Part shown: positions 3,970 to 4,934 of the stretch, in pieces
How the letters are laid out: every line of letters begins with the position of its first letter
Numbering within the stretch: the stretch's first letter is position 1
From: a virus
Lineage: Duplodnaviria; Caudoviricetes
DNA length: 64,000 bases
Strand: one strand, 5' to 3'
IMG/VR virus record: IMGVR_UViG_3300032281_001326
Location: 28-64,027 of that record
The notes under the pieces: model-generated
What the model was told of the DNA's origin: nothing
What the model saw: only the letters and a program-made list of their open reading frames with translations
The model's database searches: none
Translations under genes and position numbers: made by a program

Positions 3970-4013
3970 TTGTTTTGTGACTAATATCTATAATTAAATT
4001 TTGATATATAAAG

Positions 4014-4469
4014 TGGAGGCGAGGGGAGTCGAACCCCTGTCTTTATTTTTTACGCTAAAAGGTCGTTACATGTTTGGGTATATTTAACATTTTAGCTATC
4101 TTACGATAACGAAGACAAAAGGCTGTTTGGTTATACTAACCGAGTTTTGTGTCTGCCTATATGTGTGATTAAAGACCACATATCGCCTCTGTGTATTTTT
4201 TTCTATGATCTCTAACAGTTCATCAAAACCTCTGCGTTTCAAAATAGTTTTAGAGGATCCACTATTAGGCTCTTAGGCTGCGAGTTCGTACTCGTCCTCA
4301 CAACCAACGAGGAACTCGTCGGCGTGATTGATGATGTACTCAGCTTCAGCTAGGAGATCAGAAGTATCGTCTTCTGCATTTAGTTTTTTAATCGATTTTT
4401 AAAGAGGCCATCGATTAACCTCTACATGCGTTTTTAGTTTCATAAATAAATCGAAACCAGTGCGCCCCC
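4014..4469 (-). ncRNA. ssrA: tmRNA (one-piece, 456 nt); tag (A)AEDDTSDLLAEAEYIINHADEFLVGCEDEYELAA*
   Basis: Acceptor stem GGGGGCG/CGCCTCC-A with G3:U70; T-arm GGGGTTCGACTCCCC; pk1 GAGG/CCTC plus TTAATCGAT/ATCGATTAA; resume codon GCA after CTAAAT; tag ORF 4273-4377 ends LAA-TAA; CCA not fully encoded. Confidence 0.96.
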
Positions 4470-4474
4470 AAATT

Positions 4475-4722
4475 TCAAAGATCATTACCACTGATTTGCA
4501 TTGCTGGCTCAATGGTCAAGCCTCTGTAGCATTTCTATCTCTGATAGAACATAAATGTAAATGAGGCGTTTACCCGCGACGCCTCTGGCTAAACCGCGTC
4601 TAAAAAGACTGTCGGCTACTTTACGGTCTCGCCTGATTAGTAAAAATATTCATTGGCTACCGGGTTTTTAACCCGTTGGGCGAATAATTTTTATTATCCC
4701 TGCCTAATCGGGACTAATCTAT
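4475..4722 (-). ncRNA. Candidate structured non-coding RNA of unknown family, upstream of tmRNA
   Basis: No ORF of 60 aa or more; locally GC-richer; at least 7 stems (4506-4522, 4533-4549, 4563-4585, 4587-4633, 4661-4675, 4697-4713, 4635-4641 with 4713-4719); promoter-like element just upstream. Confidence 0.6.
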
Positions 4723-4728
4723 ATTAGA

Positions 4729-4756
4729 TATATACACTTTTGTTTTTAAAAGTCAA
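4729..4756 (-). promoter_or_regulatory. Possible promoter TTGACT-N16-TATATA for the ncRNA/tmRNA transcript
   Basis: Good -35, weaker -10; also contains the GTGTAT motif at 4732-4737. Confidence 0.5.
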
Positions 4757-4934
4757 ACTCTTTTATTAAGAGATGAGCTTCTTCTTCCAGCTCATTTAAA
4801 TCCAGCATTAGCTTAGTAGCCAAAAGCTCATTTTCATAAAAATGATCCAAGGTTTTATCCTTCATTGAAGCGATTGAGTCTATAATTTCACTTATTTCGG
4901 TTAAGTGACTATAATTGTCGGTTAATTCGCTCAT
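4746..4934 (-). CDS. Hypothetical acidic protein
   Basis: 62-aa ORF with ATG start. Confidence 0.55.
   Translation of the reverse strand: MSELTDNYSHLTEISEIIDSIASMKDKTLDHFYENELLATKLMLDLNELEEEAHLLIKEFDF

Follow-up and report, generated by a model that had tools for sequence, protein, structure and literature searches.

Three structured RNA families, apparently inherited independently, precede the tmRNA gene of an uncultured phage

Comparison with related sequences confirmed that positions 4487-4719 (minus strand) of the window, 64 kb of DNA from an uncultured IMG/VR phage with a completeness estimate of ~43%, hold a genuine structured non-coding RNA on the strand of the neighboring tmRNA gene. 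A first, sequence-only reading had taken this stretch for a single RNA unit of ~250 nt. The homologs divide it instead into three RNA families in series, named modules A, B and C, which judged by their distribution are separate and independently inherited, since every one of them also occurs where the other two, or a tmRNA, are missing. The explanation to which we give about an even chance is that the modules are phage-specific small-RNA genes of a tmRNA/tRNA operon, which would be co-transcribed, freed by processing and act in trans. All features of the locus are listed in Table 1.

Table 1. Positions of the tmRNA gene, the three RNA modules with their helices and the promoter in the window.
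Feature	Position	Strand	Remarks
tmRNA, one-piece	4013-4469	minus	ARAGORN; Rfam RF00023, 118 bits
A/U-rich spacer AAUGAUCUUUGAAAUUU, 17 nt	4470-4486	minus	directly 5' of tmRNA
Module C, 63 nt, hairpin and H-type pseudoknot	4487-4549	minus	alignments A3, A6
Module C hairpin	4543-4549/4533-4539	minus	covaries
Module C S1, 4 bp	4519-4522/4506-4509	minus	inner part of GGCTTGA/TTGAGCC
Module C S2, 7 bp	4510-4516/4487-4493	minus	covaries
Module B, 71 nt, long bulged stem and hairpin	4563-4633	minus	alignments A2, A4; model R2
Module B P1, 10-bp stem, one G.A mismatch	4624-4633/4587-4596	minus	
Module B variable inner hairpin	4606-4609/4598-4601	minus	
Module B hairpin 2, 7 bp	4579-4585/4563-4569	minus	loop CGCGGGUAA 4570-4578
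Module A, 85 nt, three-way junction	4635-4719	minus	alignments A1, A5; model R1
Module A P1	4713-4719/4635-4641	minus	closes three-way junction
Module A P2	4710-4712/4698-4700	minus	near-invariant 9-nt loop GAUUAGGCA
Module A P4	4682-4686/4647-4651	minus	leads via conserved internal loop to P3
Module A P3	4671-4675/4661-4665	minus	hairpin
Sigma-70-like promoter: -35 TTGACT (4751-4756), 16-nt spacer, -10 TATATA (4729-4734)	4729-4756	minus	read from sequence

The tmRNA encodes a long, acidic tag peptide with LAA at its end. The stretch upstream of it had been described as non-coding, GC-richer and densely paired, and this description holds: the G+C content is 0.44 across 4500-4724 versus 0.24-0.33 upstream, no conserved ORF was found in 4470-4745, and covariation backs nearly all of the helices listed. 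Likewise, the promoter-like element is present as TTGACT-N16-TATATA, and a promoter scan of the minus strand agrees that no other such site lies between it and the tmRNA; the element itself was skipped by the scanning tool, which demands T as the last base of the -10 hexamer. The predicted transcription start (~4720-4723) lies 1-4 nt before P1 of module A. The pattern TTGACT-N16-TATAT(A/T) also precedes module A in three related loci (L065, L073, L069) and module B in a further one (L333). Since it is conserved ahead of whichever module comes first, the promoter belongs to the operon and not to one module. With this conserved promoter and no other one before the tmRNA, co-transcription and release by processing of the tmRNA 5' end, as proposed before, would be the natural reading, though for three RNAs and not for a single unit.

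Directly upstream of the leader promoter lies an ORF of 62 aa (4746-4934), which is conserved in two phage clades and ends in a stop codon overlapping the -35 element. Its only family match, PF11918 at 17.9 bits, stays under the cut-off of 26.6 bits and is not significant. In relatives the end of an Rnl2-like ORF is located just upstream of the leader promoter, and in the window a T4 Rnl1-like RNA ligase (phrog_562) and a metallophosphoesterase are encoded 1.3 kb downstream of the tmRNA (334-2686).

Folding of the 261-nt minus strand yielded -69.3 kcal/mol (z = -2.86), and the plus strand was nearly as stable (z = -2.67). As both strands score alike, folding energy alone is indecisive and the covariation of homologs decides. 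Compensatory changes were found in all three modules, and pairing fell to 18-49% when the partners were slid by 1-3 columns. The RNA is assigned to the strand of the tmRNA because the G.U pairs of all three modules are compatible with this strand only, as seen for pair 5-95 of module B (GU in 20 of 25 sequences) and pair 42-63 of module C (UG in 9 of 17).

Most helices of the sequence-only reading are supported by the homologs, namely TCCC/GGGA, CGGGT/ACCCG, GATTAGT/ACTAATC, GGCGAGACCG/CGGTTTAGCC, GAGGCGT/ACGCCTC and TTCTATC/GATAGAA. The pairing GTCT/AGAC is present, yet its arm changes in length and sequence among homologs, and GGCTTGA/TTGAGCC shrinks to the 4 bp GGCT/AGCC that are compatible with a better-supported helix, ACCATTG/CAGTGGT. 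The latter (S2 in Table 1) had been overlooked, as had P4 of module A, and it forms a pseudoknot together with GGCT/AGCC. Conversely, the loop pseudoknot GTAGC/GCTAC had to be abandoned: it is lost in homologs, with CGAGC versus CCTAC in L080, and either of modules B and C is found where the other is missing.

For the comparison, 59 related phage loci were gathered by means of a 253-aa protein encoded downstream of the tmRNA. When the whole leader was used as query for nhmmer, only its first ~100 nt were conserved, in 17 of the 59 loci and usually 25 nt upstream of a tmRNA, which identifies the leader as composite. Copies of the modules were obtained by scanning viral, metagenome and genome collections for patterns and then applying covariance models, and comprise 42 distinct sequences for module A and 17 for module C. 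For module B, 17 viral or MAG copies and ~24 metagenome copies were obtained, ~40 of them distinct and true after filtering; the 14-mer scan used here returned mostly noise, chance matches being filtered by hairpin context, and a looser pattern gave only chance matches in the viral collection. As the homologs were collected by exact patterns, the invariance of the module B loop, of AGCCG and of the loop strands of module A is partly built in.

The order of the modules before the tmRNA varies. A-B-C is found in the window, L065 and L073, A-B in L069 and L352, B-A-C in L080, L076, L333, L389 and L396, and B-A in L370, L417 and L432. Module B stands alone in L391, and most loci carry module A alone or preceded by a block termed X. 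Module C was moreover detected in further phages, one of them GC-rich, which have neither A, B nor a tmRNA at this place. The spacer before the tmRNA, containing UGAUCUUUGAAAUU, is kept in related loci regardless of the preceding module. An A/U-rich spacer, UGAUCUUUGA(A/U)AU, recurs between RNA genes, both in the window (4470-4486) and downstream of module C in L063, L101, L104 and L398; its role may be that of an endonuclease site or of a signal for processing.

Several further elements were noticed in these loci. Block X is a conserved non-coding sequence of ~62 nt which starts with GAUAAGUCGGACGGGAAU and immediately precedes module A in most phages of clade 2 (e.g., L033:380-425, with equivalents in L031, L034, L043, L063 and others); it probably constitutes a fourth module. 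A long hairpin-rich region ~300 nt upstream of block X, non-coding, highly conserved and unmatched in Rfam, is a candidate for a larger structured RNA (L068, L072, L075, L077-L079, L085, L088, L098). In L063, L066, L074, L083, L089, L093 and L102 the RNA operon is opened by a further conserved, small structured block, AGUUGGUUCCCGAUGA..AAAAUCGG, which is located just downstream of a TTGACA-N17-TATAGT promoter and followed by C or X-A. In L016 and L089 an inserted small ORF, which starts with MKAKDQ.. or MKNKDQ.., separates module A from the tmRNA, and a similar one follows module A in L083, L093 and L094 with no tmRNA nearby. In L070 the Rfam tRNA model spans 118 nt (2268-2385), corresponding to a tRNA gene with an insertion of ~45 nt.

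Module A contains an internal loop in which CGYCCAR lies opposite GUAGCCAAU, both strands being near-invariant. Across the 42 sequences 95% of the cells are paired, versus 36-49% with slid partners, and nine of 14 pairs changed on both sides, with compensatory changes in all four helices P1 to P4 (MFE z = -2.40). A loop contact of three base pairs, GGC/GCC, is possible and, being invariant, gives no covariation signal. Its extension to AUU/AAU was rejected, as it is broken in natural GAGUAGGCA variants. A tRNA-like reading, prompted by the D-loop-like P2 loop, was also discarded: there are 19 nt between P3 and the stem that closes the module, P4 does not resemble a tRNA helix, and ARAGORN made no call there.

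In module C an invariant linker holding ACAGAGGCUU connects the hairpin with the pseudoknot. The 17 distinct sequences are paired to 96%, and six of 18 pairs changed on both sides; S1 is 100% paired with one compensatory event only (L398). Model R3 served only to collect and align gapless copies of this module, the structure being supplied by hand. The idea that the first hairpin mimics a CRISPR repeat was dismissed because its stem covaries freely.

In module B, P1 encloses a conserved strand (UAAA..AGCCG) and an inner hairpin of variable length, and the hairpin-2 loop CGCGGGUAA is identical in every copy found, all copies having been collected with patterns that fix this loop. In 25 distinct sequences 94% of the positions are paired and 13 of 17 pairs covary (nine of ten in P1, four of seven in hairpin 2). 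The module lies within tRNA arrays of unrelated phages at 2-11 nt from same-strand tRNAs, starting 2-5 nt after one (Val, His, Met, Trp, Lys) and ending 5-11 nt before the next. Of 34 contexts, ~24 have an alanine-accepting RNA next in line, directly or past A and C, namely tRNA-Ala(UGC) or tmRNA; elsewhere the module precedes tRNA-His, Pro, Asn, Leu, Gly or nothing. The outer three pairs are G-C, G-C and G.U in 21 of ~24 copies, as at positions 1-3 of tRNA-Ala, whereas they are G-C, G-C and C-G in the clade of the window, and a CCA end is lacking. These parallels may in part go back to a common origin of the arrays. The company of tRNA-Ala and tmRNA, together with the RNA-ligase and repair genes, gives a weak hint of host machinery that acts on tRNA-like RNAs or attacks them. 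A more specific proposal, in which module B mimics or targets alanine-type acceptor RNAs and forms with A and C a toolkit that controls or guards tRNA and tmRNA function against host defences, appears unlikely to us at present; if true, it would mean that phages use new RNA classes, be they decoys, aptamers or ribozymes.

Database searches support the assignment to families beyond the known ones. At the gathering score of Rfam 15, the tmRNA was the sole match and none was obtained in 4470-4745. At E<=10 two matches reach into this region, both far below their cut-offs: tmRNA_permuted (4336-4632; 19.2 versus 47 bits, E = 0.21) and a plastid 3'UTR family (17.8 versus 61.7 bits). Scans of 12 related loci and of the B-A-C stretch of L080 likewise assigned no family to the modules, and twister, pistol, hatchet, HDV, T-box, YrlA, GOLLD, ROOL and the riboswitches were among the families of Rfam 15 left unmatched. 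Thus the earlier statement that the stretch fits neither RNase P, SRP, 6S, group I/II introns nor hammerhead was borne out by the scan. In 50,697 records of cultured phages no module was matched, the searches returning only tRNA matches, and the strict pattern for module B hit no more than three short MAG contigs in a collection of 185,579 prokaryote species. With ~40 viral and metagenome copies of module B, its near-absence from prokaryotes and the lack of any match in cultured phages, the families look specific to uncultured, mostly aquatic phages. A catalog of 8,495 candidate structured RNAs from IMG/VR, to which no function or modular behavior was assigned (PMC10690425), draws on the same data source and covers the same kind of object, i.e., covarying unnamed phage RNA motifs. 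Modules A, B and C may already be among these candidates.

The position of the modules raises the question whether they are a cis-acting leader that serves the tmRNA or the following tRNA itself, e.g., by shielding the 5' end of the primary transcript, by preventing the G-rich acceptor strand from folding wrongly, by directing RNase P or by antitermination on an untranslated operon. The put RNAs of phage HK022 make RNA polymerase resistant to termination. Such a role would agree with the start of module A right behind the predicted transcription start, with the frequency of tRNA-Ala or tmRNA after module B, and with the finding that in loci chosen by the neighboring protein and not by RNA, module A lies directly upstream (~25 nt) of 13 of 14 distinct tmRNA genes. 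However, the exception (L006) and likewise L075, L083 and L093 show tmRNA genes with their own promoter, a trivial hairpin and no modules, while module A is located 1.7 kb away, before a protein gene, or is absent. Moreover, module C occurs with no tmRNA or tRNA nearby, module B also precedes the other tRNAs named above or nothing, and the order of the modules is free. We regard a cis-acting leader as rather unlikely; the very regular placement of module A just 5' of the tmRNA makes a cis role possible for this module.

It is also conceivable that at least one module is a self-cleaving ribozyme of a new class which cuts the polycistronic RNA. The compact pseudoknotted or multi-junction folds, the many invariant unpaired bases and the tightly fixed position beside tRNAs are in line with this, and theta ribozymes, which are minimal HDV-like, adjoin phage tRNAs (PMC10879173). 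Like the modules, these are small structured RNAs within a few nt of tRNA genes in uncultured phages. In contrast to them, the modules match no HDV-like or other known ribozyme class in Rfam even at E<=10 and show no evident nested double pseudoknot, and module B is found both after and before tRNAs. Furthermore, no cleavage-site signature can be named, and RNase P and 3' processing enzymes already explain the excision beside tRNAs and tmRNA. This makes a ribozyme improbable.

A binding function for small ligands, either as riboswitch-like sensors or as RNA 'sponges' for small molecules, could be deduced from the aptamer-like conservation of junction and internal loops, chiefly in module A, and from the pseudoknot of module C. 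Yet an expression platform is missing: neither a terminator nor a ribosome-binding site follows, the downstream genes being the tmRNA or tRNAs, and no riboswitch family matches. We consider aptamers very improbable.

Least credible, and hardly to be expected at all, is that the three modules jointly represent an RNase P RNA in reduced or permuted form, or some other known RNA scrambled past recognition. Short words in all three modules resemble what we take to be its conserved regions CR-I, CR-IV and CR-V (AAAGU..CCG in B, AAUGAA in A, ACAGA..GGCUU in C). The look-alike words are not conserved, the CR-I-like AAAGU varying among the homologs of module B, and neither RF00010 nor RF00011 matches at E<=10 in the order A-B-C or in the B-A-C order of L080. 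In bacterial RNase P RNA, CR-I and CR-V pair as helix P4 inside a single closed P1-P4 architecture; here each module closes on its own helix and also occurs singly, and this reading was rejected.

Y RNAs were considered as well. Bacterial and phage Y RNAs (YrlA) are bound by Ro60/Rsr (PMC4201824), and they share with the modules a structured fold and the linkage to RNA-repair genes, the outer stem of module B being superficially Y RNA-like. Unlike Y RNAs, the modules have no tRNA-like T/D-arm domain, no motif of the GNCGAA type (PMC4201824) and no match to YrlA in Rfam. A TROVE/Ro60 gene was not found in the 64-kb contig, which represents ~43% of the genome by estimate, and together with the absent motif this led us to reject a Y RNA.

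In kind the modules are comparable to two RNAs of phage T4. RNAC (species 1) and RNAD (species 2) of T4 sit in the tRNA gene cluster of this phage. Their function is still unknown (PMC9697503). They too are small structured phage RNAs on the same strand as tRNA-type genes and presumably excised by tRNA-processing enzymes of the host, just as the modules are non-coding, structured and placed on the same strand within a predicted phage tRNA/tmRNA transcription unit. Unlike RNAC and RNAD, the modules form three shuffling families and lead a tmRNA gene rather than lying in a tRNA cluster. In a blastn search of 4000-4760 and of module C against the 50,697 phage records, among which we expect T4, no match was obtained that would indicate homology.

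Taken as small-RNA genes acting in trans, which is the reading we favour, the modules would be part of one transcript with the order promoter, module A, module B, module C, spacer and tmRNA. RNase P matures the 5' end of tmRNA, and the cut of the host enzyme at this end, or at that of a tRNA, would free the modules; host endonucleases would probably cut the A/U-rich spacers too. Modules A and B are only 1 nt apart in the window phage and may stay joined here, which counts against a clean separation of the two. Once freed, the modules would act in trans during the infection, comparable to the small stable RNAs encoded in the tRNA cluster of T4, and the many invariant unpaired bases suggest that each module binds a specific partner.

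Tripartite or not in a given phage, tRNA/tmRNA operons of phages thus carry phage-only RNAs which are conserved, covary and behave in the manner of mobile genes. For three families the boundaries, secondary structures and search models are given along with dozens of members, so that synthesis and testing can follow. If any of the modules were a decoy, an aptamer or a ribozyme directed against host tRNA, tmRNA or defence functions, it would represent a new class of phage counter-measures, and such an activity would explain the abundance of non-tRNA RNA in phage tRNA/tmRNA operons. Even if the modules were mere stable passengers, the annotation of widespread 'intergenic' phage DNA would still be corrected.
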